Of a DNA stretch of 64,000 nt, positions 1 to 55,332 are shown one piece after another. The stretch spans positions 8,083 through 72,082 of the forward strand of contig JAHRWA010000008.1 of the NCBI GenBank assembly GCA_019090455.1. Direction: 5' to 3'. The DNA is from Pseudomonadales bacterium (GTDB lineage Bacteria > Pseudomonadota > Gammaproteobacteria > Pseudomonadales > DC-out160). Within the stretch, counting starts at the first letter, position 1. The number at the start of each line of letters is the position of its first letter. Under the pieces are notes generated by a model, which saw nothing but the letters and a program-made list of their open reading frames with translations, was not told the DNA's origin and made no database searches. A program made the position numbers and the translations under genes.

Positions 1-395
1 GCATCAGAGAAGGAGCGGCGATTGGCCGCCTCTTCAGCCAATCGCCGTAGCTCTTGTTTTTGGTTCTCGATTTTCTGAGCCTGTTCCAATTTGGTACTTA
101 GCTCCTTTGACTTTCGATCATCGATGGGATCGATTCCATTCGACAGGCCGGTTTTCAGCTTTCGGTGAATTTTGCGAATTTCCTGCAATGATGATGATGG
201 CCAATTTGCGACTTTGACTGTCCTGTATTTTTTACCATCCAGGCTACGATATTTGTACTCAAATTGTACGATTAGTGTTCCTGCACGATTATGGCGTACT
301 CGCCCTCGAAGACCACCGCCATCGTTAATGATGGAGTTGACATCCTTTTCCGCAAGCGCCTTCAAAGTGGCTGTTTTGAGAAGATTGGTCGACAT
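1..395 (-). CDS. int: Tyrosine integrase, P4/CP4-57-like; only the N-terminal part is present because the gene runs off the left edge
   Basis: The gene is absent from the ORF track because it has no stop in the window. Reverse-strand translation from the ATG at 395-393 gives MSTNLLKTATLKALAEKDVNSIINDGGGLRGRVRHNRAGTLIVQFEYKYRSLDGKKYRTVKVANWPSSSLQEIRKIHRKLKTGLSNGIDPIDDRKSKE... and stays open to position 1. The pattern (L..KAL...DK...DGGGL.(L/G)RV...G...F.F.Y....GK.....(L/V)G.(Y/W)P..SL.EAR......L..GIDP) is the arm-binding N-terminus typical of P4-family integrases. Confidence 0.75.
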   Translation of the reverse strand, partial: MSTNLLKTATLKALAEKDVNSIINDGGGLRGRVRHNRAGTLIVQFEYKYRSLDGKKYRTVKVANWPSSSLQEIRKIHRKLKTGLSNGIDPIDDRKSKELSTKLEQAQKIENQKQELRRLAEEAANRRSFSD

Positions 396-1368: not shown

Positions 1369-2913
1369 ATGTCAGAAGCAACATTGCAGCAGGCGCTCGA
1401 GTATCCAGCGAAAAAGGAGAAACTGGATATTGATTATGAGACACTCATAATTGGTTCGGGCTTATCCGGTATTGGTGCCGGTATTCGCTTAATTAAGGAA
1501 GGTTGTCCCGATTTTATTATTTTGGAAAAGGCCGATGACTTGGGAGGAACTTGGCGAGATAATACTTATCCCGGTTTGGCGGTGGATGTCCCATCTTTAA
1601 GTTATTCTTTTTCTTTCGAACAAAACCCCAATTGGTCTAGCTTGTACGCATCTGGCGTGGAAATGAAGAACTATGTTGATCATTGTGCCCAGAAGTATGG
1701 CATTCGTCCTCACATGCGATATAACGCTGAAGTCGAAGAGTCCTCCTTTGATGAGGAGCATAATGTTTGGGTTACTCGCACTACCGCTGGCGACACTTAC
1801 GTTTCGCGCTTTTTAGTCAGTGCTACTGGTTTCTTAACCGTACCCAAATTACCCATTATCGACGGCATTGAAACCTTTAAAGGCAAAGTGATGCATACCG
1901 GACGCTGGGATCATTCCTACGACATGACCGGGAAGCGAGTGGGTTTTATTGGTACCGGCGCGACAGGCATTCAGGCAGTGCCAGAGATAGTGGATGAATG
2001 TAAAACGTTGGATATTTACCAGCGAACTCCGATTTGGTTGTTACCGAAAAAGGAGATGCCCTTTAGTGAGCGCACACAGGAAATATTTGCAACGGTACCC
2101 GGAGCACAATGGTTAGCGCGACTGGTGATGATGTTCTTTACCGATATCGTGATGATCAATTTGCTGGTTTACAATAAGTACTTTTCCTTCGCGGGAAAAA
2201 AGCTACAAGATTTGTGCATTGATCATATTCGAAATCAGGTAGACGACCCTGCGACGCAAGAGGCCCTTATTCCAAAATACGATTTTGGTTGTAAGCGACC
2301 TAGTTTTACTTCTAAGTTTTATCCGGTGTTTAATCGCGATGATACCAACTTGGTCACTGATCCTATTGAGCGGATTACTGAGAATGCGATTGTCACTAAG
2401 GATGGAACAGTTCGAGAAATCGACATGCTGATTTGTGCTACGGGATTTGAGGTTTTTCAGAAGGGGAGTGTTCCTACCTATTGCGTGAAAGGGAAGGGGG
2501 ATCTTGATCTCAGCGATTTCTGGGAAAACAATCGTTATCAGGCCTACAGTGGATCCACAGTACCTCGTTTCCCTAATTTCTTTTTAATGTTTGGGCCTTA
2601 CAGTGTCTGTACGGCATCTTGGTTTGGCATGATAGATACGCAGTCTAAACATCTAGTGCGTTGTATTAAGGAAGCTAAAAAACGGAATGCAAATTATGTC
2701 GAAATAAAGGAATCAGCTAATGAAAAGGATTTTAAAAAAGTCGTTGCAAGAACCCGATCTACGATATTTAAAACGGGTGATTGTGCTCGCTCTAATAGCT
2801 ACTACTTTGATAGGCATGGGGACAGTCCAACGATTCGCCCTACTATGGGTTTTTTACATTGGTTCAATACGCGTTTTTTTAGTATGAAAAATTATATTAT
2901 TGAAAATAGGTAA
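1369..2913 (+). CDS. Class B flavin-dependent monooxygenase, Baeyer-Villiger (type I BVMO)-like
   Basis: The track ORF begins at a TTG (1354). The ATG at 1369 is preceded by GGGAGGTGA. The protein has a GxGxxG dinucleotide fold (IIGSGLSGIGAG), GGTWRDNTYPG, the BVMO fingerprint FxGxxxHxxxW[PD] (FKGKVMHTGRWD) and a second Rossmann motif (GFIGTGATGIQ). Confidence 0.8.
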   Translation: MSEATLQQALEYPAKKEKLDIDYETLIIGSGLSGIGAGIRLIKEGCPDFIILEKADDLGGTWRDNTYPGLAVDVPSLSYSFSFEQNPNWSSLYASGVEMKNYVDHCAQKYGIRPHMRYNAEVEESSFDEEHNVWVTRTTAGDTYVSRFLVSATGFLTVPKLPIIDGIETFKGKVMHTGRWDHSYDMTGKRVGFIGTGATGIQAVPEIVDECKTLDIYQRTPIWLLPKKEMPFSERTQEIFATVPGAQWLARLVMMFFTDIVMINLLVYNKYFSFAGKKLQDLCIDHIRNQVDDPATQEALIPKYDFGCKRPSFTSKFYPVFNRDDTNLVTDPIERITENAIVTKDGTVREIDMLICATGFEVFQKGSVPTYCVKGKGDLDLSDFWENNRYQAYSGSTVPRFPNFFLMFGPYSVCTASWFGMIDTQSKHLVRCIKEAKKRNANYVEIKESANEKDFKKVVARTRSTIFKTGDCARSNSYYFDRHGDSPTIRPTMGFLHWFNTRFFSMKNYIIENR

Positions 2914-2941
2914 TAGATACAGAAAGGAAAATGAAACAAAT

Positions 2942-2967
2942 AAACCGACAGAATTTCATGTCGGTTT
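2942..2967. terminator. Bidirectional hairpin terminator between the convergent monooxygenase and NRPS genes
   Basis: AAACCGACA (2942-2950) pairs with TGTCGGTTT (2959-2967) around an 8-nt loop. A/T runs lie on both sides. Confidence 0.65.
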
Positions 2968-3037
2968 ATTTGTTTCATAATACTAACGGAGTTTACCTAC
3001 TAGATATTTTCATAGAGTCCCTTCTATATAGTTTCTT

Positions 3038-6000
3038 CTATAGCGTTATTTCCTCAAACTCTTCTTCAAATTCACCCTCGGACCCACCTTCAGTTGAACC
3101 CGGCTGGATTGCTGTGGTGATGATCTCTGCTATGCCAGAAATCGTGGTGACATCAAACAAAGTATGTACACTAAGATCAACCGCTAACTCGGCTTTTATT
3201 CTTGAACGAATGCGTGTGACATCCAAGCTGTGCCCCCCTAAATCAAAGAAATCGAAGTTGGTGGATACATTGTCTAGTTCTAAAATATCTTGCCATATGG
3301 TTTTTAATTTCTGCTCAGTCTCATTTTTGGGGGCGATGTATTCTTTGCTTTCGTAGTTTGCAATTTCAGGTTCGGGGAGAGCACGTTTGTCGGTTTTTCC
3401 ATTTGCTGTTTTGGGGAACTGCTCCAGTATTACGTATGCCGATGGTACTAAAAATTGAGGTACCCTGTCTTTCATGCCAGCCTTTAATACATTGGGTGTG
3501 TGTTCTACACCGGGTATCAATAGTATGTAAGCTATTAGCTCTTTTGTGCCCTTATGATTCTCTTTTAGCAAGACACAGCTATCTCGAACTCCCGCTAACA
3601 TCTTAAGGTTTGATTCCACCTCTCCTAATTCAATACGATATCCACTGAGCTTAACTTGGTCATCAACGCGGCCCAGCAATTCGATGTTTCCATCTCCGTG
3701 AAACCGGCAGATATCGCCGGTTCGGTAAAGCCGGGCATCAGGAGTAGGATCAAATGGGTCAGAGATAAATTGCGCTAGCGTTTTTTCTGGTTGATTCAAA
3801 TATCTGTCTGCCACGCCATCGCCACCAACATAGAGCTCTCCGGCAACTCCTATCGGCACCTGTCTTTCTTGGGGGTCGAGGATGTAGACCGTTGAATTAG
3901 CGATGGGAGAACCAATCGGTATGCTTGTCGCGAATGAATCCACTGATTCCACAAGGTAGGTGGTTGCGAGGGTCGTATTTTCTGTTGGGCCATAGATATT
4001 AATTAAGCGTTTTGGTGCCGCCGCGCCATCGTTAGCCGTTAGCACTTCGCGCAGTTGACTCGCATCCGCATTTTCTGCTCCGAATATAACGGTATGGGCG
4101 TCAGCAAATACATCAATTTTTTGAGTTGTTAAATGATTGAATACTGAGGTGGATACGCCTAGTAGCTTGATATTCTTTTCCGCTATCATTTTGGGTAAAA
4201 GCTCGAGATCGAGTAGAGTCCCTTGTTCGACAATAACCAATTCACCGCCGTTCAATAGTGCGGCCCATATTTCGATAGTGGTGAGATCAAAGGACACATT
4301 CGAACAATGAAATACGGTGTCGCCAGGAAGGATGTCTATATAGTTGGTGTTGACTACCAATCTAGAAATGCCTTTGTGTCGAACACACACACCCTTTGGA
4401 TTACCGGTTGTACCGGATGTATACATCACATAAGCCAGATCCGTTGAACTGACAGGGATATCCAGATTAGTGTCGCTATAGTGTGTCAATTCTTCTTGCA
4501 AGTCTTCCCAGACCATGACGATCGACTGATGAGAGTTGTCACTTTCAGTCATGATTTTTCCCCGAATCCTTTGCATCATTTCTTGGCTGGCTTCGGAGGT
4601 AATTAAAACCGCTGATCCTGCATCTTCCAGTAGATACGCTATTCGATCTTGGGGGTATGAAGTGTCAATGGGGACGTAAACTCCTCCGACTTTTAATACG
4701 GCCAAAGTAGAGACAATCATGGACACTGAGCGGCCCAAGGCAATCGCGACCAGGTGGCCAGGTTTAACACCGGCGTCGACCAGTCGTCGCGCCATCTGAT
4801 TGGATGTTTGGTTGAGTTCACGGTAAGACCATTTTTCATGACCCAATGACAGAGCGGTGAACTCGGGGTATTCTGCGGCCTTATTTTCAAACTGAAACAT
4901 CAGTGATTTGTCTGAGGGGTACTCGGTTGAGGTGTTATTCCATTCTTTTAACAGTGCTAGCTCATCCGGCAAAACATAATTCAAACTACTGAGCGCTTCA
5001 GTCCCATTAAGGAGCTGTTGTGCGATCAATGTGATTCGTTCGAGAAGTCGACGGGAGTCAAACGCTGTGGGAGAGTAACTCAGGCTTAGCGTCAATCCTT
5101 CGTTGTCCTCTTGCACATATAAATGCACTACCTGTTCTACATTGTTTGAATGGCGCGTTAGTTTCTTTACCTTCGTGCCATTCAGCGAAAGTTGCGGCAT
5201 TGGGAGTAAGTAGTTGTAGTTAAACTCGGGGTCTGAAGACTCAACAATACTATTTCGTACGCTGGTTGAAAGTGCTTTATAGGGTTTTGACTCTTTCTGA
5301 AAACGACGAGCGGAATCCAATAACTGCGTGACTGAATCTTCCATGTTTTCAGGTTGAAATACGAAAGGTAAATTGTAGACGTAGATACCGAGATTGGATT
5401 GATGTCCTTTGGGTCGAACGCTCAACGCATTATTCACAATAAATGGGTTTGTTGGGCTGCCGTATTGTTTCAATATTAAGGCATAAATGCAGCGGAAGAA
5501 AAGCGCAGGGGTAATTGCCTTGGCACGACAATAGTGTTTGATTTCGGTAAATTTCCGCAGATTAATGACCTCGGATTGATGAATGAAATGCTCCTCTTCT
5601 ATTGCTCCATTTAAAAGGGAAGGTCGCCCTACTGAGAGAGGTTCTACATCTTGTAGTACGTCAGACCAATATTGTCTTAAGTCTGGGGTATCATATTCGT
5701 TTCGATGTTGGGTGATATATTCTAGGTAATCTGCATTTTTATTGAGTTTATGTTCAGATACCGCCGCTATTGTTTCGCTCTGTATATGGCTTTCTAGTTT
5801 TTGATACTTATTTAGAATCTGTTCAATATGAATAGAACCGCTGATTGCATCCATTAATATATGATGACAAGCGCTGGCAAAAATAAACCGGTTGTGACTC
5901 TGTCGCCAAACACGGTACCTCACTAATTGATTACCATGGATGTCATAGGGTTGATAAACGAATTGCTTCACCAAAGTTGATATTTCATCATCGGTTAGAT

Positions 6001-6418
6001 CTTGCGTAGTGGAATCAACTGTATCTAAAGTGGAATCAACCCTATCTAAAGAGCAATCAACGACATCTAAAGTGAAAGAGGGTTTTCGATAAATACATTG
6101 GAATGCCAGTTTCATCTCAAATTCTTGCTCATCACCTCTGTGAAAACGGGTTCGTAGTATGGCTTGGTCTTCATGTAAGGATCGAATGGCTTTTTCCAAC
6201 ATCACGTTATCCAGCTGCCCATCAATTGATAGGGATGCCCCAATACAACACTCTTGAGTGTTGGGGTTTATGATGCTGATGAAATACATGTCGTGTTGCA
6301 TCGGTGTTAACGAGAAAATGGATTCGATATCGATATTCGAGCCACGCTCTATATCTTGTTTGAGCGCAAAGTTAATATCTTGCGTCTGCGTTGTTGACGC
6401 TGTCTGATTCTTTTTCAT
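3038..6418 (-). CDS. Single-module nonribosomal peptide synthetase (C-A-T) with no TE, R or terminal C domain
   Basis: The condensation domain has the HHxxxDG motif (ACHHILMDAISG). Adenylation core motifs are LAYVMYTSGTTGNPKG, NIYGPTE, YRTGD, GRVDDQVKLSGYRIELGEVE and PKTANGKTDKRAL. The carrier domain has FFDLGGHSLD. The protein ends about 55 aa after the PCP serine. The track ORF starts at a TTG (6427); the ATG at 6418 is the more likely start. Confidence 0.9.
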   Translation of the reverse strand: MKKNQTASTTQTQDINFALKQDIERGSNIDIESIFSLTPMQHDMYFISIINPNTQECCIGASLSIDGQLDNVMLEKAIRSLHEDQAILRTRFHRGDEQEFEMKLAFQCIYRKPSFTLDVVDCSLDRVDSTLDTVDSTTQDLTDDEISTLVKQFVYQPYDIHGNQLVRYRVWRQSHNRFIFASACHHILMDAISGSIHIEQILNKYQKLESHIQSETIAAVSEHKLNKNADYLEYITQHRNEYDTPDLRQYWSDVLQDVEPLSVGRPSLLNGAIEEEHFIHQSEVINLRKFTEIKHYCRAKAITPALFFRCIYALILKQYGSPTNPFIVNNALSVRPKGHQSNLGIYVYNLPFVFQPENMEDSVTQLLDSARRFQKESKPYKALSTSVRNSIVESSDPEFNYNYLLPMPQLSLNGTKVKKLTRHSNNVEQVVHLYVQEDNEGLTLSLSYSPTAFDSRRLLERITLIAQQLLNGTEALSSLNYVLPDELALLKEWNNTSTEYPSDKSLMFQFENKAAEYPEFTALSLGHEKWSYRELNQTSNQMARRLVDAGVKPGHLVAIALGRSVSMIVSTLAVLKVGGVYVPIDTSYPQDRIAYLLEDAGSAVLITSEASQEMMQRIRGKIMTESDNSHQSIVMVWEDLQEELTHYSDTNLDIPVSSTDLAYVMYTSGTTGNPKGVCVRHKGISRLVVNTNYIDILPGDTVFHCSNVSFDLTTIEIWAALLNGGELVIVEQGTLLDLELLPKMIAEKNIKLLGVSTSVFNHLTTQKIDVFADAHTVIFGAENADASQLREVLTANDGAAAPKRLINIYGPTENTTLATTYLVESVDSFATSIPIGSPIANSTVYILDPQERQVPIGVAGELYVGGDGVADRYLNQPEKTLAQFISDPFDPTPDARLYRTGDICRFHGDGNIELLGRVDDQVKLSGYRIELGEVESNLKMLAGVRDSCVLLKENHKGTKELIAYILLIPGVEHTPNVLKAGMKDRVPQFLVPSAYVILEQFPKTANGKTDKRALPEPEIANYESKEYIAPKNETEQKLKTIWQDILELDNVSTNFDFFDLGGHSLDVTRIRSRIKAELAVDLSVHTLFDVTTISGIAEIITTAIQPGSTEGGSEGEFEEEFEEITL
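6009..6071. repeat. Three tandem 21-bp repeats inside the NRPS condensation-domain coding region
   Basis: The three units are gtggaatcaactgtatctaaa, gtggaatcaaccctatctaaa and gagcaatcaacgacatctaaa. They encode three 7-aa units (LDVVDCS-LDRVDST-LDTVDST) on the minus strand. Confidence 0.8.
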
Positions 6419-6456
6419 GTAGCACAACCCCCTATTTTTCTGTCTGTTCTATTTTT

Positions 6457-7662
6457 TTAGGCACAGCCATCAAGATAGATCACTTTTTTTCCTAGATAAT
6501 TGGTAAATTCCACTGTTGGATGACCATCCAAATCACCGTAATGCAAGCTATTGCTGTCTGATTCAGTGGTTCCATCGATGGGTATTTCGTATTTTCCCGT
6601 TTGGTGTACGATTTCATACATAGGTATAATTAACGACGAATCGTGTCTTCGTATTTCACTCAGTATTTTTCGGCCTTTCTCTACTTTCGGCCGGAATAGA
6701 TTGACGCCTGGGGTGAAAGGCATCGCGTGAAAAAGGTGTATGGGGATGATTTTAATTTGCACTAACAATAATAATAGTTGGCGTAACTTTTCCGTGGAAT
6801 CGTTAACGTCGTGCAAAAACGGAATTTGAGCGCACTTCAAGATTGAGCCGTAACCATACCGATCAAAAAGCGCGACGGCTGCCTTGAATTCAGGGGTGAT
6901 TTCCTCAGTACAGGCCACATGAAATACGATGGCGGTGACATCGTGTGTTTTACATAAAGTGATAAACTCTTCGTCGAAACGAAAAGGATTGTGGCTGAGG
7001 CAGCGAGTATGTATCCGTATAATTTTAATGCTTTCGATTTCCCGCAATGCCTTGAGTACTTGAGCGAGCTTCGAGTTTGACAAGATCATCGGGTCGCCAC
7101 CACTTAAGATGACTTCGTTGATTTCGGGATGATCTCTTAAATAGACAAGGGTGTTTTGCCATTCCCCACTTTTGTTAAAGCCATTTTTCTCCTTCTCCAT
7201 ATCGAGCGTCCTGGCTACTTTAAAACAGTAGGAGCAATAGGCAAGGCAGGTATCAGTGACATCGAGTAGCGCTTTGTAAGCATATTTATGATGGAGAAGC
7301 TGAGTGGGGAACTCCTCCGAATGTTCCCAGTTTTCATGATATCCGTGAAAGGCATCCGCAGCATCGGATGGCAATAAAGCCGCATCAGGAAAGAATTGTC
7401 TCGCAATGGGATCTGAAAGAGTCGGCAATCCCGATTCACATTTAAATTGGCTGATGAGATAGGGCGTCAATTGAAATCTAAAACGTTGCAGGTATTCAGC
7501 CAAACCGGTTTGTCTTTCTTGGCTTAGCCCGGGGTAGAGTTGAACAAGGTCTTTTAAAGTGCGGATGGCAAATTTTTGCTGCCATACCCAATCCGTCCAT
7601 TGCTCAATACGCACATTCCGGTAGAAAACGTGCCGATGATCATGCGATTTTATGGCTTCCAT
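6457..7662 (-). CDS. Lysine 2,3-aminomutase (KamA)-family radical SAM/PLP aminomutase
   Basis: The radical SAM cluster motif is CLAYCSYCFK (CxxxCxxC). The N-terminus is KamA-type (W.DW.WQ ... LTPYLISQF ... DPIARQFFP). LSGGDPM is present, and a probable PLP lysine lies in HQTGKYEIP. Confidence 0.8.
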   Translation of the reverse strand: MEAIKSHDHRHVFYRNVRIEQWTDWVWQQKFAIRTLKDLVQLYPGLSQERQTGLAEYLQRFRFQLTPYLISQFKCESGLPTLSDPIARQFFPDAALLPSDAADAFHGYHENWEHSEEFPTQLLHHKYAYKALLDVTDTCLAYCSYCFKVARTLDMEKEKNGFNKSGEWQNTLVYLRDHPEINEVILSGGDPMILSNSKLAQVLKALREIESIKIIRIHTRCLSHNPFRFDEEFITLCKTHDVTAIVFHVACTEEITPEFKAAVALFDRYGYGSILKCAQIPFLHDVNDSTEKLRQLLLLLVQIKIIPIHLFHAMPFTPGVNLFRPKVEKGRKILSEIRRHDSSLIIPMYEIVHQTGKYEIPIDGTTESDSNSLHYGDLDGHPTVEFTNYLGKKVIYLDGCA

Positions 7663-7695
7663 AGCGGGGTCCTTTCCTGTTTTTTATACTTATTC

Positions 7696-7740
7696 CCTTC
7701 GTGCTCTAACTCTAACTCTAACCTTCGTGCTCTAACCTTC
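7696..7740. repeat. Intergenic direct repeats between the Fe/2OG oxygenase and aminomutase genes
   Basis: CCTTCGTGCTCTAAC occurs at 7696-7710 and again at 7722-7736. Two extra TCTAAC hexamers separate the two copies. Confidence 0.8.
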
Positions 7741-7751
7741 TATAGAAAACC

Positions 7752-8708
7752 TCACGCAAACGCGGCAATTATTCTTCTATGACCAGAGCTTGGTGTCCAA
7801 TTAGCGACACCATGTGTCCAGGTGAGATTGTTTTGGATGACTAAGTCATTGGGTTGTAACTTATAAGAGATTTTACATTTAAAAAGTTGATCATACCGAC
7901 TACCGAAATGCCCTATTCTAAGACCCGGATCAGAATCAAACATCTTAAATTCCGAAATGCCGGCAGACTGTTTTAGCAAGCCGCTCTCTAGCAGTAGGTT
8001 TTTGAATTGTTCTAGTGAGTCATAGTCTATGGACTCGGTGGTATACCAAAGGGTGTGCAAGTCTTGGTTTAATATATTTGAATGTAATTTTTTCGGAGAT
8101 GCTAGAACATCATAGAGGGTAATGTTTGAATCGATGGTCGTCGCTTTTAATATTTCATCATCGCTCGTTAAGCTATCTTCCGGCATGTTGAGTCTATACC
8201 TCATCCTCAATTGACTTTTCTCAGATCGGCTTAAACTTCTTTTCGTCACTCCCTTTACGACTTTGTCACGAAGTATGCCCCACATTTCGCTATTTTGATC
8301 AACGTTCATCAGTATTGTCTCGCCACCATCAGTGGTATTTTCTAGACAATAAAAAGCAGCCATTTGCATACCCAGCAAATGGCTGCCTTCAGAATGGGGA
8401 GTTACAATTTTATAATCCTTGCGTTTATCTACTGTCATAAAATAGTCTCCCACATTATCACGGTGTCCTGCGAGGGAAGCCATTCCAGCTTGCAGCTCTA
8501 AGGATTCAAGTAGAGCAAAACCTTTTGCAATTTCGGCGATCAAACGGTCCGCTTCAGTGGGATCGACATTTTGTATCAACGCAACCTGATCCTTCTTCAA
8601 TGATGCGATTGCAAAACTAGCGTCATCTTTAACTGTGCGGGAGTTTATCCTGGATAAGCGACTCTTATCCTCTATTACAATCCCGCCCTGAGCAGTACAA
8701 TCTTGCAT
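7752..8708 (-). CDS. Fe(II)/2-oxoglutarate-dependent oxygenase, clavaminate-synthase/TauD-fold; candidate amino-acid hydroxylase
   Basis: A candidate HxE...H facial triad is present (TPHSEGS and, about 190 aa later, WTHGVANW), followed by a C-terminal Arg (GHRRIIA). HxE rather than HxD is typical of the CAS-like amino-acid beta-hydroxylases. The family call is from motifs only. Confidence 0.55.
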   Translation of the reverse strand: MQDCTAQGGIVIEDKSRLSRINSRTVKDDASFAIASLKKDQVALIQNVDPTEADRLIAEIAKGFALLESLELQAGMASLAGHRDNVGDYFMTVDKRKDYKIVTPHSEGSHLLGMQMAAFYCLENTTDGGETILMNVDQNSEMWGILRDKVVKGVTKRSLSRSEKSQLRMRYRLNMPEDSLTSDDEILKATTIDSNITLYDVLASPKKLHSNILNQDLHTLWYTTESIDYDSLEQFKNLLLESGLLKQSAGISEFKMFDSDPGLRIGHFGSRYDQLFKCKISYKLQPNDLVIQNNLTWTHGVANWTPSSGHRRIIAAFA

Positions 8709-8735: not shown

Positions 8736-8829
8736 TGGCGGAAGAGGTAGGAGTCGAACCCACCAAGCACCTTATCAGCGCCTCACTGGCTTTGAAGGCC
8801 AGGCACCCCACCGGGGACATCGCTCTTCC
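8736..8829 (-). tRNA. selC: tRNA-Sec (anticodon UCA)
   Basis: The minus-strand sequence is GGAAGAGCGATGTCCCCGGTGGGGTGCCTGGCCTTCAAAGCCAGTGAGGCGCTGATAAGGTGCTTGGTGGGTTCGACTCCTACCTCTTCCGCCA. It has the anticodon arm CTGGC-CTTCAAA-GCCAG (UCA), a long variable arm, the T-loop TTCGACT and an encoded CCA. The overall layout matches E. coli selC, and the gene lies directly downstream of selA-selB. Confidence 0.93.
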
Positions 8830-8849
8830 GAGATTGATCGGAATCCAGT

Positions 8850-10784
8850 TTATCGTGTAAATTCTTTTTCTGGAAGTGTCGTGTCGATTATCCTTCGGCT
8901 GCTACCATCGCGTAGGGTAAAACGAATAGAGTCGAAATATTCCAGCACTTCGATGATGAGATTACGGCCTACGCCGGTGATGTTTTTGTAGTTGCCGACA
9001 TTGATTGCCTCACCCCTCGCGTCCAGTACTAATACTTTTTGTGCGTAATCAAGAAGTTGATGAGGTAGTCCATAACGCTTTTCGTTAAGTTTTAACACCA
9101 GCCCCTGACGCTGTGCACGATTCAAGGTATCCATCACTTTTGGTTTACTCCAGGCTGTCACCTTCATCAATTCTGAGACTAACGGCATCTGTGCTGCCTG
9201 CTTTTCAAAAATGGGCTTTAGCGTTTTCCAGTGCGGTGGATCGGCTTCCTCTTCTTTGGCTTTATAGCCGGGTGTTTGTACTAGTCCACCCACCATCTTG
9301 AGTAATCCTTTTTGAATGGCTTCAGAAAGAATCGCTTGAAACAGCGTGCTTGTTATGACGTTTTGCAATTGTTCTAGCAAAGCAGATAATGGTAACCCTG
9401 TTTTTTCGGGGTGCTTTAAATGCAGTTGCTGCACGGCTTTAAGTAGCGTTTTTTCAGCAACCTGCCAGTGCTCCTTGGCGATGATGTAGCAAATGCTTTC
9501 CTGGATAAAATGCTTAGCGCCATCCAGGTTTTTCAATGCCTGCGTTTCCTGATCGCGCAGGTTCCAACTGCGGCTGAAATCGCTGAGGTTAATTTCAAAT
9601 TCCTGAGTCTCAAGAAGTTGCTTGATAGACTGCTCGGCATCGTCATGTGACATCGCTGCCAGATACGTTAATCGCTGCTCTCTGGATTTGCCTGCGCGCG
9701 GTGCCAGAGGGTCGAGTATCACCCCTCCGCCGAGAGTGACGGTTTCACTGTGATCTCTCAGTAGAAACCTATCGCCGTGACAACAAGAAAAAGGCAGGGG
9801 CGACATCAGCTGTACGAGTGCCTCGGTACCCGGTTGAAGACGGGGTCGTGCAGCTTCATCAATAATATAGAGTCTCGCCTCAATATGTTTTGCAGCGATG
9901 TGTAACTTGACGGGTGACAAGTGTTTCACCGCAAACGGCGCATCGGTCAGCAGACGAAAACGCGCATCACAACGATGTACCAGTGGAGCATCGATTGCAG
10001 TTGTCAGCACATCACCTCGGCTGATTTGTTGTCTCTCAATGTTGCCAGTAATATTGAGAGCGCAACGTTGTCCGGCTTGTCCGCTTTGTGCATCCTTATC
10101 CTGTACCCGTAGAGATCTGACTCGTAGCGTTTTACCCAGTGGCAACAACTGTAGTTCATCACCCACATTGATCTTACCTGCTGCGACGGTTCCAGTGACC
10201 ACCAAGCCTATGCCCTTGAGTGAAAATGCGCGGTCGATAGACATGCGAAAGTGACAATCTAAATTGCGAGCATTGTGTTGCAGTGGATGATTCTGCAAAT
10301 AGTTTAGCAACTCTGAAATTCCCTCACCCGTGGTGTTGGAGACGGTGAACAGGTCGCATTGTTGGCTTTTTAATAAATCGCGCACTTGCGCGCCGACTTC
10401 TTTCACTCGTGTGGCAGGCACTCGGTCTATTTTGGATACCACCGCGACAAAATGTTTGAGCCCAAGTAAACGAAGAACATTCAGGTGTTCTATGGTTTGC
10501 GGCATGGGCCCATCGTCCGCAGCCACTACCAGCATCCCTAGATCTATGCCACTGACCCCTGAAATCATCGTGTTAATAAAACGGCTGTGGCCAGGCACGT
10601 CGATAAAGCCCAACCGGGTGTCATTGTTCTGGGAATCCGTGGCGAGTGGGAGATAGGCGAAACCGAGGTTGATGGAAAGACCTCGGCGTTTTTCTTCCTC
10701 CAGACGATCGGTATCGATACCGGTTAATTGTTTGATCAACGAAGTCTTGCCATGATCTACGTGACCTGCGGTGGCAATGATCAA
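8850..10784 (-). CDS. selB: Selenocysteine-specific translation elongation factor SelB
   Basis: The N-terminal GTPase has MIIATAGHVDHGKTSL, DVPGH and SKID motifs. The 644-aa length includes the long C-terminal extension characteristic of SelB. The gene overlaps selA by 4 bp and sits next to selC. Confidence 0.92.
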   Translation of the reverse strand: MIIATAGHVDHGKTSLIKQLTGIDTDRLEEEKRRGLSINLGFAYLPLATDSQNNDTRLGFIDVPGHSRFINTMISGVSGIDLGMLVVAADDGPMPQTIEHLNVLRLLGLKHFVAVVSKIDRVPATRVKEVGAQVRDLLKSQQCDLFTVSNTTGEGISELLNYLQNHPLQHNARNLDCHFRMSIDRAFSLKGIGLVVTGTVAAGKINVGDELQLLPLGKTLRVRSLRVQDKDAQSGQAGQRCALNITGNIERQQISRGDVLTTAIDAPLVHRCDARFRLLTDAPFAVKHLSPVKLHIAAKHIEARLYIIDEAARPRLQPGTEALVQLMSPLPFSCCHGDRFLLRDHSETVTLGGGVILDPLAPRAGKSREQRLTYLAAMSHDDAEQSIKQLLETQEFEINLSDFSRSWNLRDQETQALKNLDGAKHFIQESICYIIAKEHWQVAEKTLLKAVQQLHLKHPEKTGLPLSALLEQLQNVITSTLFQAILSEAIQKGLLKMVGGLVQTPGYKAKEEEADPPHWKTLKPIFEKQAAQMPLVSELMKVTAWSKPKVMDTLNRAQRQGLVLKLNEKRYGLPHQLLDYAQKVLVLDARGEAINVGNYKNITGVGRNLIIEVLEYFDSIRFTLRDGSSRRIIDTTLPEKEFTR

Positions 10785-12199
10785 AACAGTTTCTCTCTTA
10801 GTTGTGCCAATTGTGCGACAAAATCCGCCTCTTGTTCCAAACAGCGCAGATCCAGTAATACGCCACCTTTGTGTAGGCGCCCGATCACCGGTATGGGTAA
10901 TGCTCGCAACGCTTCAATCAGACAGCGAAGTTCACTGTCGATGGCTTTTAACGGTTTTATTTCCAAGCAGGCACTGGCAAGGGTTTCGATGGGTAGTGCA
11001 CCACTGCCAATTTGGCTGAAGCCGGGGACGACGGTAACGACAAAGCGGGGTGTTAACGCTGCGCTCAGTATCGGCGCTAGGTTTGTTGCTTGGCTTTGAA
11101 TTATTTCTAAGGGTCGGGTCAGTTGCCTTAAGGTGGGAAGCTCTTGCAGCAAGGCTTCAGGATTACGATACAGTTTTAGCACCTCACTTAATGCCGCAAG
11201 GGTCATTTTGTCTAAACGCAAAGCCCGCTTAAGCGGATTCTTTTTTATTTTCTCTATCAAGTCTTTGCGTCCAGCAATAATTCCCGCTTGGGGGCCACCA
11301 AGCAGTTTGTCACCGCTGAAGGTAATGATATCGGCTCCATTGTTGATGGAGGTGGCAGCGCTTGGCTCATCCGGTAAACCCAAACTGGAAAAATCGATGA
11401 GGCTACCGCTGCCTAAATCGATGACAAAAGGTAAATTATGCTGACCTGACAGATGTGCCAAATCCACTTCACCCACCGATTTGGTGAAACCCTCTACGCG
11501 GTAATTACTGGTGTGTACTTTCATTAATAAAGCCGTTTGTGAATTGATGGCCTGTTCATAATCTCGCAGATGGGTGCGATTAGTGGCGCCAATTTCTACC
11601 AACGTACAACCGGAGCGTGACATAACCTCAGGGATGCGAAAGGAGCCGCCAATTTCCACCAACTCTCCCCTCGATACCGGCACCTCTTGGTTCATGGCCA
11701 GCGTGTTAAGCACTAATAATACTGCGGCGGCATTGTTATTGACGGCGGTAGCGGCTTCAGCGCCGGTGAGTTCACAAATCTGCGCTTCAATATGGGATTC
11801 GCGGTCGTCGCGTTTGCCGGTAGAGAGATCGAATTCAAGATTGGAAGGGGATTGAGCAACCATCACCATCGCCTCTATCGCCCTTTGCGGCAGAGATGCC
11901 CGCCCCAGATTGGTATGTAAAACAGTGCCGGATAAATTGAAAACAGGGCGTAGGCTGCATTTATCCATGTTCTCTAATTTCGCGGTAGCAGCAGACTGAA
12001 TGGCCTCAATGGAATGTGCCGGGGAATCTCCCGCTGTAATGGCCGTACGCAACAGCGACAATTCCTCACGAAGTGCTGCGACAAATTGTTCATGGCCCCA
12101 GCGTTCTATTAATGGTTGCGATTTTTGCAACAGGCTATCGATTCCGGGCAACTGGCGAAACAGCGCTTGAGTTGTCGAGTTGTCACGGCTCGTTGACAT
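10781..12199 (-). CDS. selA: L-seryl-tRNA(Sec) selenium transferase SelA
   Basis: The 472-aa protein carries a PLP-lysine motif, FSGDKLLGGPQAG. Its position upstream of selB-selC, with ATGA overlap coupling, fits selA. Confidence 0.9.
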   Translation of the reverse strand: MSTSRDNSTTQALFRQLPGIDSLLQKSQPLIERWGHEQFVAALREELSLLRTAITAGDSPAHSIEAIQSAATAKLENMDKCSLRPVFNLSGTVLHTNLGRASLPQRAIEAMVMVAQSPSNLEFDLSTGKRDDRESHIEAQICELTGAEAATAVNNNAAAVLLVLNTLAMNQEVPVSRGELVEIGGSFRIPEVMSRSGCTLVEIGATNRTHLRDYEQAINSQTALLMKVHTSNYRVEGFTKSVGEVDLAHLSGQHNLPFVIDLGSGSLIDFSSLGLPDEPSAATSINNGADIITFSGDKLLGGPQAGIIAGRKDLIEKIKKNPLKRALRLDKMTLAALSEVLKLYRNPEALLQELPTLRQLTRPLEIIQSQATNLAPILSAALTPRFVVTVVPGFSQIGSGALPIETLASACLEIKPLKAIDSELRCLIEALRALPIPVIGRLHKGGVLLDLRCLEQEADFVAQLAQLREKLF

Positions 12200-12372: not shown

Positions 12373-13248
12373 ATGAATATGCATCCTCCCGTCAGTTACA
12401 TCCAGCAAACGAAGGCGCTTTATGACAGCCTCGGTTATGAACCTTATAAATGGTTTGCAGCCGATTCAGAGCCCGCTTTCACCAAGCTCAAACAACCATT
12501 GTCAGAATGCAAACTCGGATTAGTCTCTACTGCAGGCACTTATGTTGCCGGCCAGGTAGCGTACTACTACAAGGACGATACCAGTGTTCGAGCCATTCCC
12601 AGTAATACGCCGGTGGAAGATATTCGTTTCTCCCACGTTACTGAAAATTATTTAGTCGATGCCCGTCAAGATCCGCGTTGCACTGTTCCTCTTGAGGCAC
12701 TGCAAACTTTGCAGAAAAAAGGCGTCATCGGTTCATTGGCGAATAACTTTTTTTCTTGCATGGGGGGTATTTATTCCCAGCGTCGGGTTGTGGATGAGCT
12801 GATTCCTGCATTGGAAAAAGGCATTGCCGATGAAGAGATTGATGTGCTTCTGATGGTGCCGTTGTGACCCGTTTGTAATCAGACCGTGTGTCTGATATCC
12901 CGTCATTTTGAAGCGAAAGGAATACCTACACTTATTCTTGGAGGTGGTCAGGACATCTTGCAGGCAGGAAAACCGCCGAGGGCTAAATTTCTGAATTACC
13001 CACTGGGTTTTGGCACAGGCAAGCCCTTTGACACAGAGAATCAACTGGCAGTGCTAACAGCGGCTGTTGCGGGTTTCGATAGCATGCTGAAACCGGGGGT
13101 TGAGTCTCTGGATTTCTCCTGGGATTCGGGGTGGGAGATGATAGCGGAACGAGACAAAAATAAAGATGGAGCGGATCAACGCTCGCCTCGAGATACCACA
13201 CCTCGTTATCAAACGGAACGAGACAAGGAATTGGCCGAAGGTAATTAG
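12373..13248 (+). CDS. GrdB/PrdB-family (glycine/betaine/sarcosine/D-proline reductase B-like) selenoprotein with Sec encoded by TGA at 12865-12867
   Basis: Track ORFs 12373-12867 and 12886-13248 are in the same frame and are separated only by one TGA. Read-through gives ...IDVLLMVPL-U-PVCNQTVCLISRHFEAKGIPTLILGGG...PPRAKFLNYPLGFGTGKPF..., which has a UxxC redox motif in the position I recall for this family. A hairpin starts 11 nt after the TGA. The gene lies 173 bp from, and divergent to, selA. Confidence 0.8.
12878..12896 (+). promoter_or_regulatory. SECIS-like hairpin downstream of the in-frame UGA
   Basis: ATCAGAC (12878-12884) pairs perfectly with GTCTGAT (12890-12896). The loop CGUGU contains GU. 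The stem begins 11 nt 3' of the UGA. Confidence 0.65.
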
Positions 13249-15379: not shown

Positions 15380-18300
15380 ATGAGCATCGGAAAATGCGAA
15401 GCATTAAAACGTCACCAATCTAGACAAACTCTTGGTCAATCTATTGATCATTATAAAAAACGGATTCGTTACGCCGGCTTTATTTTTCTATCTCAGTTCT
15501 TACTGATCACGGCCAACGCTGAAACAGTGACTATTTTGCCTGATGGTCCGGACCAAATGCCGGTCTTGTTTATACACGGTGTTAATTCCGATGGTGCTTT
15601 GTGGGGAGTGGGGCCAACAGAGGGGCATTTGGGGGGACGTGTAGATTTAGCGAGCAAGTATATCGAAACTAAAACGTTGGGGCCTGCTCGTTCCCCTTCT
15701 CGATTCTTTGATCAGCAGGGTATACCCAACTGGGCGGTTCAATGGAAAGCGGAGGGAGGCGATAGTCCTTATGCTAGCGCGGATGAAGGGCATGCATTTT
15801 TACAAACCCCAGCTGAATTAAGGGCAGGCGTTGACTGGATTGAGGGGACGTGGACCTCTCAAAATAACCCGCTACCCAGTGCAAAAAGCGTTTTAGCTTC
15901 ATTGCATATCCTTGACGTGGATACGACTAATCTTCCTCTTCCTATTACTGAAATTGATAAAGTGGCAGCCCCAAATTTTTCAAGATTGATGATCGCAGCT
16001 CAATTGCCCGGAAGACATAATTATCAAACAGCAGGTCGTATTGATGGTCGTGCTGATAATCTGTTGGATATGTTAGCGTCTGAGCGCAGCGAAATGGGTA
16101 AACTTGGCAAGTATAGACAAGTCAATATTCTCACTCACTCAATGGGAAGCCTGATCACTCGGGCCGCATTACACAAGGCGGTTGAGGATGGTTCTCGTCA
16201 AGATTCAGAATTTGTCGCGAACGTGATTTATAACGCGCCTCCGTTCGCGGGCTCTACATTGGCATATCTGGCGAACTTATTGTTTGAACCGACACTAGTG
16301 ACTCGGGAAGTATTTGCCGATCCTATGGTTAGGCGGATGTTAGAGACGCATCCAGTAGCAGTCGCATCTATTGGTGGATTGATAGATGTTATTATTTCTC
16401 CCCTTTATAGGGAGCTGGGTTTTACTTCTACCTCATTTTACGGCTCCTTACCGTTATCGTTCAAAGTAACAAAATTCCTTTTAGATAGAACGAACGGAGG
16501 TAATGCGGGTATTCTTTTATTAAATTATCTTACGGTGGATATATTTTGGGGAAATGTAGCGGCGACCTTTATGAATACAGGATTGCGCGCACTCCTTCGG
16601 GATTATAATGGACTGCCGGGGATGAAAGAGCTGGAGCCGGAAGGTGGGGCAACTCACATCACACGTTATGATAATCATCCCGATATAAAACAATTTGTCA
16701 CTTTGGGTAATGGTGGTCCACAAGTAAACTTGTTTCCTGATAATTTGAGTTCAATCGTCACTAACCCCGATATATTATTCAATCCGCCTTTTTTATCTGC
16801 TCAGCAAGATGATTTGGCCTTGGCTACCGGTAGTGCAGAGCTATTAACAACGACCGATGCTTTTGGTCCGGCCATGACACTGCTGTCGCCTATCAATTCA
16901 ACCTCGGGTGTCTTTAATGGTTTTACCCATGAAGATTTGTGGTCCCATAATGTGCCGGCCATGGCTCCAGTGTGGCTGAAAACCTTATGGGTGCCGCCGA
17001 CCAGTTTAATCTTAGACGGTGATGTTATTGAAGCGGATTCGGCATCACGTAGTTATGTTATTAATGATCTGGATACGGAAATTCGATTTGAGTCGGAGTC
17101 CTTTGATAAAGCGTTAACTTTTACGGCACCGTTTCCTGTCAATCAACAAGATAGTTTAACGATTAATGTAGCCGCTGCATCTCATCAATACCGCGTTATT
17201 CCCGACAATGGTACTTTCACTGAAGTCGAAGAATGGCAGGAGTTGGCGGTGGGTTCCAGCCTTTCGTTCCGGCAAATTGTCGATGATTTTTCGCTATCAG
17301 GAACTCCCTTCTTTCTGGAATGGCGCTCGATTAATGCCATAGGAGGTCGAGAGATGATTCGGCGAGCACGTTTTGCCGTGATAGGGGATGTCGCTCAGAT
17401 ATCCAGTTACCGACTGTTGGCCGTTGATTACAGTGAGGTGTTGGAGAAGTCTGCTTACTCGCATTTGGATGCTAAAGCCGTACGCAATAAACTATTACTG
17501 CGGACGCTAGAGGGGAATGCCTCTTTATTGGAAAAGTTAGCGCAAGTGCAGGCGCAAACCGAGGCGAAGTGGGTGTTACGCAATCCGCAAAGCAAAGCAC
17601 TTTTCTTCACCTTCGATGCACGCACGGATATAGAGTATGCGTGGGATGATGAAACCCTTTCTAACCCCAGCAATCGGGCGGATGTGGATAGCGCGGTAAT
17701 CAATTTAGGTTCTTTAAGCGAGGGGCGTCACAATTTGTTTATACGTACATCGGTATCCGCAATCGGTGTTACACAACAATCGGATATTATGCAATTCAGT
17801 GTGTTAGTCGATAACACACCACCGTTGATCCATTTTACCCAAGCCAGCAATCATCCGTTAGGGGTGGTCGTCGGGCCGATGACGCCATTGTATTTTACAG
17901 TACAGGATATTGAAACCAACGCGGCAACGGGCGTGGCATTGTTGGCGGGTCAGGAGAAATGGACTTACCCCGATAGCAAAATTTTTAATTTAAATAATAC
18001 AGATTTTATTGAAGACCTCGAATCGAAGGGTATCGCCGGCGGCTTTGTTGATATTGTTTTTAACGCGGAAGACGCCGTTGGAAATCGCAGTGAAATCACT
18101 GAGCAGTTTTATTTGGATATCGTCTCGCCCGACCAAGAAATTGTTGAAATTACGGATACATTATTAGTTGCGCAAGGTGAATATAAAACCGCGACAAAGA
18201 CGGTGACATTAGTGTTAGATCAGTCAGATTCCGGAGCCGGTGTGACTGAAAACCCACACTTAATGGGGGTGCATGAAAATGGCGAACTGGTTGCCAATGA

Positions 18301-31612: not shown

Positions 31613-32371
31613 TTAAATAATCACAACAGTATCATCGTCAGTTTTGATTGCCTTTGCCGAATATTGCCAATGGTGGGATATATTGTTCGTGGTCAGTATT
31701 GTTTGTGGTGTATCAAATTCCGCTATGACACCCTCATTTAATATGGCGCAATGATCGCAGTAACGCATGACTTGATTTAAATCGTGTAGAACTGCGATGA
31801 CTGTGTAGCTCTGTTTTTGACATAACTCTTTACATAAAGTCAGAATGTTGTGTTGTTGACCTAAATCCTGAGCGGCGGTGGGTTCATCCAACAGTAATAA
31901 TGGTTGTTGTTCGGCTTGGCTTAATTGAACTAATACTCGGGCCAGTTGCACTCTTTGTTTTTCGCCACCGGAAAGTGACGGGAAGGCTCGCTCCGATAAA
32001 TGCAGGCAGTGCGTAGCGCGCATCTTTTTTCGTATCAGTTGTTTGGCATCGGATTGAGTTATGTTTAAGGGCGTTAAGCCTAGGGCAATAACTTCGAATG
32101 CGCTGAAAGAAAAACTGAGTTGACTGCTTTGTGGTAACACCGCTAAATGTTTCGCGCGATGGAGTCTAGGCCATTGTTTGAGGTCTTGACGATGTAATTC
32201 GATGTTTCCTTGGTAGTTTATTTCGCCGGCAATAGATTTAATCAGTGTTGATTTTCCTGATCCATTGGGTCCAATTACGGCAACAAACTTGCCGCTATTG
32301 AAATGTAGAAACGGGATGTGGAGTAAGGTTTTCTTTCCACTCTGGCAGTGTAGTGAGCGAATCTTTAACAT
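31613..32371 (-). CDS. hmuV: Heme/iron-complex ABC transporter ATP-binding protein
   Basis: The Walker A motif is GPNGSGKST, the signature is LSGGEKQR and the Walker B motif is LLLLDEP. The gene is in an operon with a FecCD permease and a hemin-type binding protein. Confidence 0.85.
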   Translation of the reverse strand: MLKIRSLHCQSGKKTLLHIPFLHFNSGKFVAVIGPNGSGKSTLIKSIAGEINYQGNIELHRQDLKQWPRLHRAKHLAVLPQSSQLSFSFSAFEVIALGLTPLNITQSDAKQLIRKKMRATHCLHLSERAFPSLSGGEKQRVQLARVLVQLSQAEQQPLLLLDEPTAAQDLGQQHNILTLCKELCQKQSYTVIAVLHDLNQVMRYCDHCAILNEGVIAEFDTPQTILTTNNISHHWQYSAKAIKTDDDTVVII

Positions 32372-32384
32372 AGCATCTCTTGTC

Positions 32385-34264: not shown

Positions 34265-34323
34265 TTATCTTGTATTGCGAATTGATTCATTAAGATTAAG
34301 GTAACAGCTTTAGTTAGGAATGT

Positions 34324-34343
34324 GAATAATAATGATTCGCATT
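34324..34343. promoter_or_regulatory. Fur-box-like sequence in the divergent hmuT / hutZ-like promoter region
   Basis: GAATAATAATGATTCGCATT is an AT-rich partial match to the Fur consensus. A second weaker match (GCGAATTGATTCATTAAG) lies at about 34275-34292. Confidence 0.45.
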
Positions 34344-34396
34344 TACAATACCTGGGTTGATGTTATATGCTCGTGGTATTCGAGAGGGAGATAAAA

Positions 34397-34921: not shown

Positions 34922-34931
34922 TGGATTTATT

Positions 34932-34973
34932 AGTTAGCTGTTATGGGTTAGGAGTTAGCTGTCATGGGTTAGG
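34932..34973. repeat. Two tandem 21-bp direct repeats upstream of the TonB-dependent receptor gene
   Basis: agttagctgttatgggttagg is followed by agttagctgtcatgggttagg (one mismatch). More TTAGG-containing sequence continues up to the start codon at 35013. Confidence 0.85.
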
Positions 34974-35012
34974 TATTAGGTTCTATGAGTTAGACATTAG
35001 GAGATATTAGGG

Positions 35013-37022: not shown

Positions 37023-37069
37023 CAATAACGATTAACAAATGTCGATTAATTTAAAAAAGGGGATAAAAG

Positions 37070-55246: not shown

Positions 55247-55332
55247 ATCATCTAGATATAAAAAATATTCCACTAGCAGTACTTGAGGTCAAACGGACTC
55301 GAAGGGAGTGGTGAAATACGGAATGGAATTTG

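Follow-up and report, generated by a model that had tools for sequence, protein, structure and literature searches.

What can a peptide synthetase of the non-ribosomal type (NRPS) make that consists of one module, carries no domain for release and is encoded beside a radical S-adenosylmethionine (radical-SAM) protein and two oxygenases? The question is raised by a compact cassette at positions 1369-8708 of a 64-kb stretch of contig JAHRWA010000008.1 (the window), which belongs to a metagenome-assembled genome (MAG) of a marine member of the Pseudomonadales. Four intact long open reading frames (ORFs) were confirmed where an initial annotation, made from the sequence, had placed them; all are full length, with all catalytic motifs intact. 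Three of them are co-directional and tightly packed on the minus strand, again as annotated. The first gene of this operon encodes a divergent Fe(II)/2-oxoglutarate (Fe/2OG) oxygenase of the TauD/TfdA superfamily (7752-8708, 318 aa) and is followed after 89 nt by the gene for a KamA-like radical-SAM protein (6457-7662, 401 aa), which aligns with structure 2A5H, and after a further gap of 38 nt by a single-module condensation-adenylation-thiolation (C-A-T) NRPS gene (3038-6418, 1126 aa from ATG, or 1129 aa from an alternative TTG start at 6427). The fourth gene, on the plus strand and convergent to the operon, encodes a flavoprotein of the type I Baeyer-Villiger monooxygenase (BVMO) family (1369-2913, 514 aa from ATG). 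Between the stop codons of the NRPS and BVMO genes lies a perfect 20-bp inverted repeat with an 8-nt loop (2931-2978), which probably is a bidirectional terminator.

We read the cassette tentatively, with somewhat less than even confidence, as an intact, horizontally mobile mini-pathway. It would build a small compound with an amide linkage, centred on a tailored, non-basic amino acid that probably is a β-amino acid; substrate, release step and BVMO role are inferred. This reading is supported by the intact genes, by their tight packing up to a strong hairpin and by the recurrence of the oxygenase/KamA-like/NRPS trio in an unrelated setting. Moreover, the clade of the KamA-like protein recurs beside amide-forming enzymes and oxygenases, and the oxygenase family is found beside NRPS genes.

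The sole syntenic relative is a 5-kb contig from Antarctic seawater (L005; JGI 3300000119, KGI_S1_ANT01_95mDRAFT_c10007791), on which IS605-type transposase genes stand alongside an oxygenase gene (56% identity), a KamA-like gene (69%) and the codons for the first 244 residues of the NRPS C domain (46%), in this order and in a flanking context unlike that of the window. On the basis of this synteny, the trio has been co-conserved once. The cluster of four genes described initially is therefore upheld for the trio, whereas the BVMO gene forms a separate, convergent transcription unit. No further orthologue of the KamA-like protein above 41% identity was detected in 185,579 species genomes (one per species) or in the JGI metagenomes, and when 1.84 billion representatives were searched exhaustively by HMMER with the C domain as query, no relative exceeded 37% identity. 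A word-indexed search with the whole NRPS surfaced no close homologue, being saturated by A-domain words to the point that the query itself was not returned. The same KamA-like gene, with an identical protein product, is present on metagenome contigs from four samples, two of which include the same NRPS and monooxygenase genes. The cassette is very rare.

The statement that no characterised pathway is known with this gene set also held, with protein, genome, metagenome and literature searches giving no close match; the literature on combinations of aminomutase, heme-oxygenase-like diiron enzyme (HDO) and radical-SAM protein, and of KamA, NRPS and BVMO, contained no characterised pathway. The cassette is genuinely orphan and was accurately described as such, but orphan NRPS loci are very numerous. 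The 64-kb window was found to contain no thioesterase (TE), reductase (R), phosphopantetheinyl transferase (PPTase), MbtH or second NRPS gene, and the other 55 kb are ordinary chromosome.

The gap between the oxygenase and KamA-like genes holds, at 7696-7736, a perfect direct repeat of 15 nt (CCTTCGTGCTCTAAC), the two copies of which are 26 nt apart and may be a regulatory element or an insertion scar. The corresponding gap on the Antarctic contig measures only 27 nt.

Domain organization and code of the NRPS

The NRPS folds its three domains into a single module, as annotated. The C domain (4967-6322, minus strand as for all three; PF00668, residues 36-487, E 1e-35) carries the motif HHILMDA, in which His-His-x3-Asp is intact and the Gly is replaced by Ala; the Antarctic orthologue reads HHIVGDG. 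The A domain (3395-4891) comprises an AMP-binding part (PF00501, residues 513-877, E 7e-80) and AMP-binding_C (residues 936-1011), passes the NCBIfam model TIGR01733 with 403 bits at a cut-off of 317, and aligns with 1AMU (E 2e-98) and LgrA (E 2e-164). The T domain, or peptidyl carrier protein (PCP; 3122-3313; PF00550, residues 1039-1102, E 2e-13), displays FFDLGGHSL. Core motifs A1-A10, GGHS and HHILMDA are all readable in the translation; inactivating changes in the A or PCP motifs, raised as a possibility at the outset, are not among them. By Pfam the protein contains no TE, R or terminal C domain and no further domain, in agreement with the initial description of a C-A-T module devoid of release functions. 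Within the C domain, a tandem repeat of three 21-nt units (6008-6077) encodes SLDRVDS/TLDTVDS and corresponds to a 14-residue insertion that is missing from the Antarctic orthologue.

The specificity code of the A domain was read from a MAFFT multiple alignment to residues 234-332 of GrsA, which gave D-L-I-G-I-G-I-T-L, completed by K517 (in NGKTDK). A code aligned by hand beforehand, D-L-I-G-I-G-I-T-L-K, was reproduced exactly, and with it the retention of Asp235 and the absence of an acidic pocket residue. The GrsA segment used is counted valid because, with it, other A domains yield the canonical codes for Leu, Thr, Val, Ser and Asn. In a pairwise alignment a three-residue loop insertion was misplaced (H/V at 299 and 301), and the multiple alignment together with the GAE/GGE register settles the code. 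It is absent from about 80 other A domains retrieved. The nearest textbook code presumably is that for Ala (DLLFGIAVLK), which serves as a lead only. A β-Ala-type A domain, the code of which has Asp at 236 instead of 235, is not supported, Asp235 being retained here.

Matches of the C domain to solved C domains are weak (E 6e-8 to 3e-5) and do not discriminate between starter, LCL, DCL and amide-synthase-like subtypes, and its nearest relatives (≤37% identity) are a mixture of N-terminal and internal C domains. At its C-terminus the NRPS bears an acidic tail (EGEFEEEFEEITL). A short acidic tail with a hydrophobic last residue is common to the NRPS (3038-3120) and two stand-alone C-A-T proteins with related C domains, P0363 and P0413; the endings read EEFEEITL, NREEIEI and NRDEGFI. 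The tail may be a docking peptide.

The KamA-like protein and the two oxygenases

The KamA-like protein aligns with lysine 2,3-aminomutase (2A5H) over residues 9-357, with an E-value of 5e-40 and about 30% identity. Residues C139, C143 and C146 and the stretch S187-G-G-D align with C125, C129, C132 and S169-D172 of 2A5H. Both CxxxCxxC and SGGDP are kept, as is a GK where the lysine that binds pyridoxal phosphate (PLP) would be expected, and the protein probably is PLP-dependent. However, its scores lie below every NCBIfam cut-off, at 176.2 versus 199.2 bits for the general KamA model TIGR00238, 178 versus 525 for TIGR03820, 168 versus 600 for TIGR04468, 165 versus 650 for TIGR04368 and 135 versus 369 for TIGR03821.

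An alignment with 40 relatives and 2A5H defines the signature of its clade: R112K, D293M (in a few members A, L or I), D330 to V, A, P or F, and A331 to a near-invariant H. The PLP-lysine loop of the clade reads xxGK in place of GGxGK, R134 is variable and a LAM_C domain is missing. In the window protein, D293 is replaced by M314 (P315 in the HMMER alignment), D330 by V352 and R134 by K148. The GK (K357 here) is found clade-wide, in a loop two residues shorter than GGGGK, the compared 2A5H sequence ending at residue 335. Sampled canonical KamA members, EpmB-like proteins included, mostly have Asp at both 293 and 330, with Asn or Glu at 330 in a few. The best homologue (P0001) is 69% identical and all others reach at most 45%; the window protein and P0001 form the deepest branch of the clade. 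On this alignment, the KamA-like protein is assigned to a separate uncharacterised clade that has lost both predicted lysine-binding aspartates.

Glutamate 2,3-aminomutase has Lys/Asn at positions 293 and 330, a pattern that is not seen in the clade. The exchanges R112K, D293M, D330V and A331H, combined with the sub-threshold scores, therefore make specificity for Lys, Arg or Glu unlikely. In the alignment the Lys-type binders proved to be gone, and identification as a Lys, Glu or Arg 2,3-aminomutase was rejected, given Met/Val instead of Asp/Asp at 293/330 and equivalog scores far under the cut-offs. The A-domain code without an acidic residue and the KamA-like protein without D293 and D330 thus both point away from Lys, Orn and Arg. 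The most economical reading would be an aminomutase acting on a non-basic, non-acidic substrate. The original label of aminomutase is accordingly retained as far as it denotes a KamA-family radical-SAM gene with intact core motifs; the protein is sub-threshold, belongs to a distinct clade, and its type of reaction is only inferred.

Further members of the clade are found in several contexts. In bacteria of the candidate phyla radiation (CPR) and in archaea (L006, L009, L016, L032, L099 and L101), the KamA-like gene is always divergently paired with a gene for a 327-aa double AsnC/Lrp-type helix-turn-helix protein, which suggests an amino-acid-responsive unit. Streptomyces, Embleya, Acidobacteria and soil metagenomes share a conserved five-gene cassette (L019-L033, L100 and L103-L106; for example L023, 8845-14423), in which a PGDH-like dehydrogenase is followed by the KamA-like protein, an alanine/serine-racemase-like PLP enzyme, an HDO (PF14518) and a HisC-like aminotransferase. 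The racemase-like enzyme is fused to the KamA-like protein in L023, and NRPS genes adjoin the cassette at two loci, L023 and L100. In Chitinispirillaceae the KamA-like gene adjoins VanW and a D-Ala-D-Ala-ligase-type gene. An unannotated mini-cassette of Burkholderia cenocepacia (L181; NZ_CP091013.1, 11944-16542) combines a KamA-like protein, which carries the signature of the window protein's clade (HKY, M-P, P-H-x-x-G-K), with an ATP-grasp ligase, a PF10014 (2OG-Fe_Oxy_2) Fe/2OG oxygenase and a major facilitator superfamily (MFS) transporter. The recurring theme of the clade is the combination of a KamA-like protein, an amide-forming enzyme and an oxygenase.

The Fe/2OG oxygenase, annotated at NCBI as hypothetical protein KUG82_01320 of a Pseudomonadales MAG, scores 25.0 bits against Pfam TauD (PF02668), just below the cut-off of 27, and has no NCBIfam match. 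About 108 homologues share 40-56% identity with it. Residues H105, E107, H299 and R311, the HxE...H...R set of an active Fe/2OG enzyme, are invariant in all 52 of 52 homologues. With an AlphaFold (AF2) model of pLDDT 94, Foldseek retrieved the TauD/BBOX/TmpA/PlaO1/CsiD/CarC superfamily at E ~1e-8, with TmpA, BBOX, TauD, PlaO1 and CsiD as the nearest folds and TM-scores of just 0.35-0.48; neither the single sequence nor the family profile matched any PDB sequence. The earlier designation CAS-like is thus appropriate at the level of the superfamily and too narrow below it. In five of six other contexts of the family the oxygenase stands beside NRPS genes, and in the sixth among genes for tailoring and MacB export; MacB-type exporters, JmjC/cupin hydroxylases and PPTases are often encoded nearby. 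The protein is best described as belonging to a putative family of amino-acid hydroxylases that is associated with NRPSs, counts about 100 members and has no solved relative. Often the family is represented by two tandem paralogues beside NRPS genes, as in Acidobacteria and an Alteromonadaceae MAG (L014/L015, 10001-12180; P0125/P0138).

The flavoprotein matches PAMO, OTEMO, STMO and CHMO at E ~1e-65 (PAMO, E 3e-65). Its BVMO fingerprint (FxGxxxHxxxW[P/D]) reads FKGKVMHTGRWD and lies between two Rossmann motifs of the form GxGxxG, GSGLSG and GTGATG. Equivalents of what we take to be D66 and R337 of PAMO are likewise present, GCKRP aligning with GTKR and AVDVPS with RCDIES. Homology, fingerprint and these two residues bear out the assignment to the BVMO-type monooxygenases, more precisely to type I. 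The NCBIfam model PtlE is matched with 217 bits, under its cut-off. An N-hydroxylase for a hydroxamate siderophore was considered and rejected, Lys_Orn_oxgnase giving a weak match (E 7e-5) against E 1e-65 and the fingerprint for a type I BVMO. The link between the BVMO and the operon is purely positional.

Proposed pathway and rival explanations

In the proposed pathway, the KamA-like enzyme would rearrange a neutral amino acid, most likely by a 2,3-amino shift that yields a β-amino acid, and the TauD-like oxygenase would hydroxylate the rearranged amino acid, which could be free or bound to a carrier. With its predicted hydrophobic pocket and Asp235, the A domain would load one amino acid onto the T domain, and the N-terminal C domain would form a single amide bond by one of two routes. 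In route (a), a free amine, possibly the product of the KamA-like and TauD-like enzymes, would attack the aminoacyl thioester, so that a dipeptide-like product is released without a thioesterase. In route (b), the C domain would N-acylate the tethered residue with an external acyl or aminoacyl thioester, which leaves the release step unexplained. The NRPS would take the role held by an ATP-grasp ligase in sister cassettes, and because such a ligase holds its place there, a self-contained one-bond synthetase is favoured. The convergent BVMO may oxidise the product and may equally be an unrelated neighbour.

Several observations weigh against a self-contained mini-pathway. The cassette comprises no transporter, regulator or PPTase gene, and all enzyme families involved are biochemically uncharacterised. 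For an N-terminal C domain the acceptor normally is its own T domain, in which case the product would stay tethered with no obvious release; the C-domain matches are too weak to give a subtype, and a hint of docking to a partner protein comes from the acidic C-terminal tail. Since the KamA-like protein scores under the KamA family cut-off and the equivalent of R134 is not conserved across its clade, the reaction may not be a 2,3-amino shift. Finally, the only syntenic contig ends inside the NRPS gene and is uninformative on the BVMO.

The first step of the pathway would change if the KamA-like protein performed other radical-SAM chemistry on a small amino acid, with or without PLP, for example epimerisation, deamination or a different rearrangement of the amine or the carbon skeleton. 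This alternative, which we consider unlikely, would account for the sub-threshold score, for the clade-wide exchanges and shortened PLP-lysine loop, for the unconserved carboxylate-binding R134 and the missing LAM_C domain, and for the alanine/serine-racemase-like PLP enzyme that adjoins or is fused with the KamA-like protein in Streptomyces and Acidobacteria. However, about 350 residues can be aligned with 2A5H, and the cluster cysteines, SGGDP and the GK at the presumed PLP-lysine position are retained; to our knowledge, every characterised member of the KamA family is a 2,3-aminomutase. A more far-reaching form of the mini-pathway, which we regard as rather improbable, takes K112, M293, H331 and the short xxGK loop as marks of a new radical-SAM/PLP aminomutase specificity class for small neutral amino acids (Ala, Ser or aminobutyrate type). 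The β-product would then be hydroxylated by a new TauD-superfamily family and joined by the C domain to the carrier-bound residue, giving a TE-independent release of a dipeptide-like antimetabolite. If true, the class would be a natural counterpart to alanine 2,3-aminomutase, which, as far as we know, has so far been obtained only by engineering lysine 2,3-aminomutase.

The main rival to the self-contained mini-pathway is a factory for a building block used in trans, in which the C-A-T protein and the tailoring enzymes would prepare a modified aminoacyl thioester for a larger NRPS or polyketide synthase (PKS) elsewhere in the genome. The module stops at its T domain and lacks a release domain, its acidic tail resembles those of P0363 and P0413 and could be a docking peptide, and in CysH there is a precedent for a module that acts with the TauD-type hydroxylase CysJ on a tethered residue, together with an aminomutase activity, before the unit is shuttled (PMC7966384). 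Yet trans partners normally lie in the same cluster, and neither the 64-kb window nor about 3.5 kb of contig beyond its left end was found to encode a further NRPS or PKS, a shuttle protein or an MbtH protein. The trio also travels compactly beside mobile-element genes in two unrelated contexts, and the sister ATP-grasp cassettes look self-contained; an in-trans function is thus judged possible but unlikely. The extent of the pathway is a different matter, and that it comprises the three-gene operon only is close to an even call. The BVMO would then be an unrelated neighbour, for instance a catabolic ketone or heteroatom oxygenase, which shares the intergenic terminator. Its convergent gene is a transcription unit of its own behind the strong hairpin, with an upstream non-coding region of 675 nt, its codon usage is no nearer to that of the NRPS gene than the codon usage of ordinary chromosomal genes, and the Antarctic contig is silent on it. 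On the other hand, the BVMO gene lies inside the same 8-kb segment, between tRNA-Sec on one side and a tRNA-like remnant and integrase on the other, and adjacency of NRPS and type I BVMO genes is a recognised biosynthetic pairing in bacterial pyrrolizidine alkaloid clusters (PMC7820566). That the cassette is inactive cargo, a stranded piece of a larger cluster without a product, would agree with the lack of a release domain, PPTase, transporter and regulator and with the adjoining mobile-element genes. This is very improbable in view of four full-length ORFs with intact catalytic motifs, of three proteins that are undisrupted and 46-69% identical to those of an independent relative, and of the identical KamA-like protein in four samples.

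Genomic setting and relation to known systems

The operon begins 28 nt after the tRNA-Sec gene (selC; 8737-8830, minus strand; ARAGORN; Rfam RF01852, 66 bits), measured to the start codon of the oxygenase gene, and selA and selB, identified by Pfam, precede tRNA-Sec on the same strand (8850-12199). No sigma-70-like site was found in the gap between tRNA-Sec and the oxygenase gene on the operon strand, so that read-through from the sel genes is plausible. At the opposite end, beyond 675 nt of non-coding DNA upstream of the BVMO gene, a tRNA-like 3' end (T-arm, acceptor strand and CCA) with a terminator hairpin (637-678) was read from the sequence at 590-678 on the plus strand. The remnant at 590-635 (...GGACGTTCGAATCGTTCCGGGCGCGCCA) differs from selC and, as we take it, resembles the 3' end of a tRNA-Arg; the stretch of about 550-635 was not called by ARAGORN or Rfam, and its folding shows no significant structure. 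Remnant and terminator sit just upstream of the start of a P4-type tyrosine integrase, 8.3 kb from tRNA-Sec, of which the N-terminal 131 codons lie in the window (1-395, minus strand). The full protein of 458 aa runs off the window; its complete gene on contig L001 (integrase and tRNA-like region, 17028-18644) encodes Arm-DNA-bind_3, Phage_int_M and Phage_integrase domains. The tRNA-like 3' end may be what is left of an att site of the adjoining integrase element, and may be the attR of an island that continues to the left beyond the window; no second copy was found in the contigs examined. A classical selC island with att repeats finds no support, as no repeat of the tRNA-Sec 3' end is present in the 64-kb window. 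Composition and codon usage do not mark the cassette as foreign relative to the rest of the window. In summary, the position of the cassette is suggestive of a mobile or hot-spot segment with putative island boundaries.

Outside the cassette, three further loci were noted. Directly beside selA, selB and tRNA-Sec, a PrdB/GrdB-like reductase gene (12373-13248, plus strand) is split by an in-frame TGA (12865-12867; motif PL-U-PVC), and gene callers report it as two ORFs of 162 and 120 aa. A 7-bp hairpin (ATCAGAC/GTCTGAT; 12878-12896), which starts 11 nt after the TGA, looks like a selenocysteine insertion sequence (SECIS), and the reductase is likely to be a selenoprotein. At 55330-58637 (plus strand), a 723-aa protein with DinB_2, FGE-sulfatase and methyltransferase domains, presumably the architecture of OvoA, is followed by a PLP enzyme of class I/II aminotransferase fold; together, the OvoA-type and OvoB-like proteins look like a pair for the biosynthesis of ovothiol. 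Genes for heme or iron uptake at 31613-38254 encode an ATP-binding cassette (ABC) ATPase, a FecCD permease, a periplasmic binding protein, a TonB-dependent receptor and an HmuY-like protein; the set is of an ordinary kind and has no relation to the cassette.

Orphan NRPS clusters abound; this cassette unites three poorly understood parts in 7.4 kb and is easily cloned. The KamA-like clade spans CPR bacteria to Streptomyces, and in every biosynthetic context that was examined it stands beside ligases and oxygenases. Knowledge of the product would give both enzyme families a function at once, would test release through free-amine capture by an N-terminal C domain and would clarify the Pbo-type cassettes of Pseudomonas and Burkholderia. 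The distinctive value of the locus lies in two uncharacterised enzyme families and a release problem, combined in a small clonable cassette.

Among known enzymes, KamA (2A5H) and the Glu and Arg 2,3-aminomutases share CxxxCxxC, SGGDP and the likely PLP lysine with the KamA-like protein, which differs from 2A5H by an overall identity of about 30%, by Met/Val in place of D293/D330, by Lys in place of R112, by an invariant His in place of A331 and by the lack of LAM_C. For the NRPS, free-standing initiating C-A-T modules are known in SylC, GlbF and ClbN, the products of which go on to downstream modules of the same cluster. Compared by description, they resemble the NRPS in C-A-T order, N-terminal C domain and lack of a release domain; the window holds no downstream modules.

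The NRPSs of pyrrolizidine pathways are bimodular, terminate in a TE and make an indolizidine that is ring-contracted by the BVMO. In contrast, the window encodes one module without a TE and additional KamA-like and Fe/2OG proteins, and a pyrrolizidine-type NRPS/BVMO cluster was rejected on this architecture. The likeness consists in an NRPS gene that adjoins a type I BVMO gene, as in clusters of the PxaAB, legonmycin and brabantamide type (PMC7820566). In cystobactamid biosynthesis, CysH, CysJ and the AMDH domain make a linker that CysB shuttles to the main assembly line (PMC7966384). This linker pathway (CysH, CysJ, CysQ and CysB) parallels the pathway proposed for the cassette, by description and not by sequence, in that a stand-alone NRPS module, a TauD-type hydroxylase that works in trans and the shift of an amino group from α to β together yield a hydroxylated β-amino-acid unit. 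However, CysH is an A-AMDH-T protein without a C domain, its aminomutase is an ATP-dependent domain in cis and not a radical-SAM enzyme, and a shuttle carries the unit to a large NRPS of the same cluster.

In Pseudomonas syringae pv. phaseolicola, the Pbo cluster is a pboA-pboI operon in a genomic island (PMC8473136), and the gene order of the B. cenocepacia locus equals pboF-pboG-pboH-pboI of this island. Membership of PboF in the KamA-like clade is deduced from gene order only. The Pbo and Burkholderia cassettes have an ATP-grasp ligase, an Ido-type (PF10014) oxygenase and MFS exporters, whereas the window has a C-A-T protein, a TauD-superfamily oxygenase and no exporter. What these systems have in common with the cassette is the setting in a genomic island, which for the cassette is putative, and the combination of parts of an NRPS with a radical-SAM protein of the KamA-like type (PboF), an enzyme that forms amides and an Fe/2OG oxygenase.

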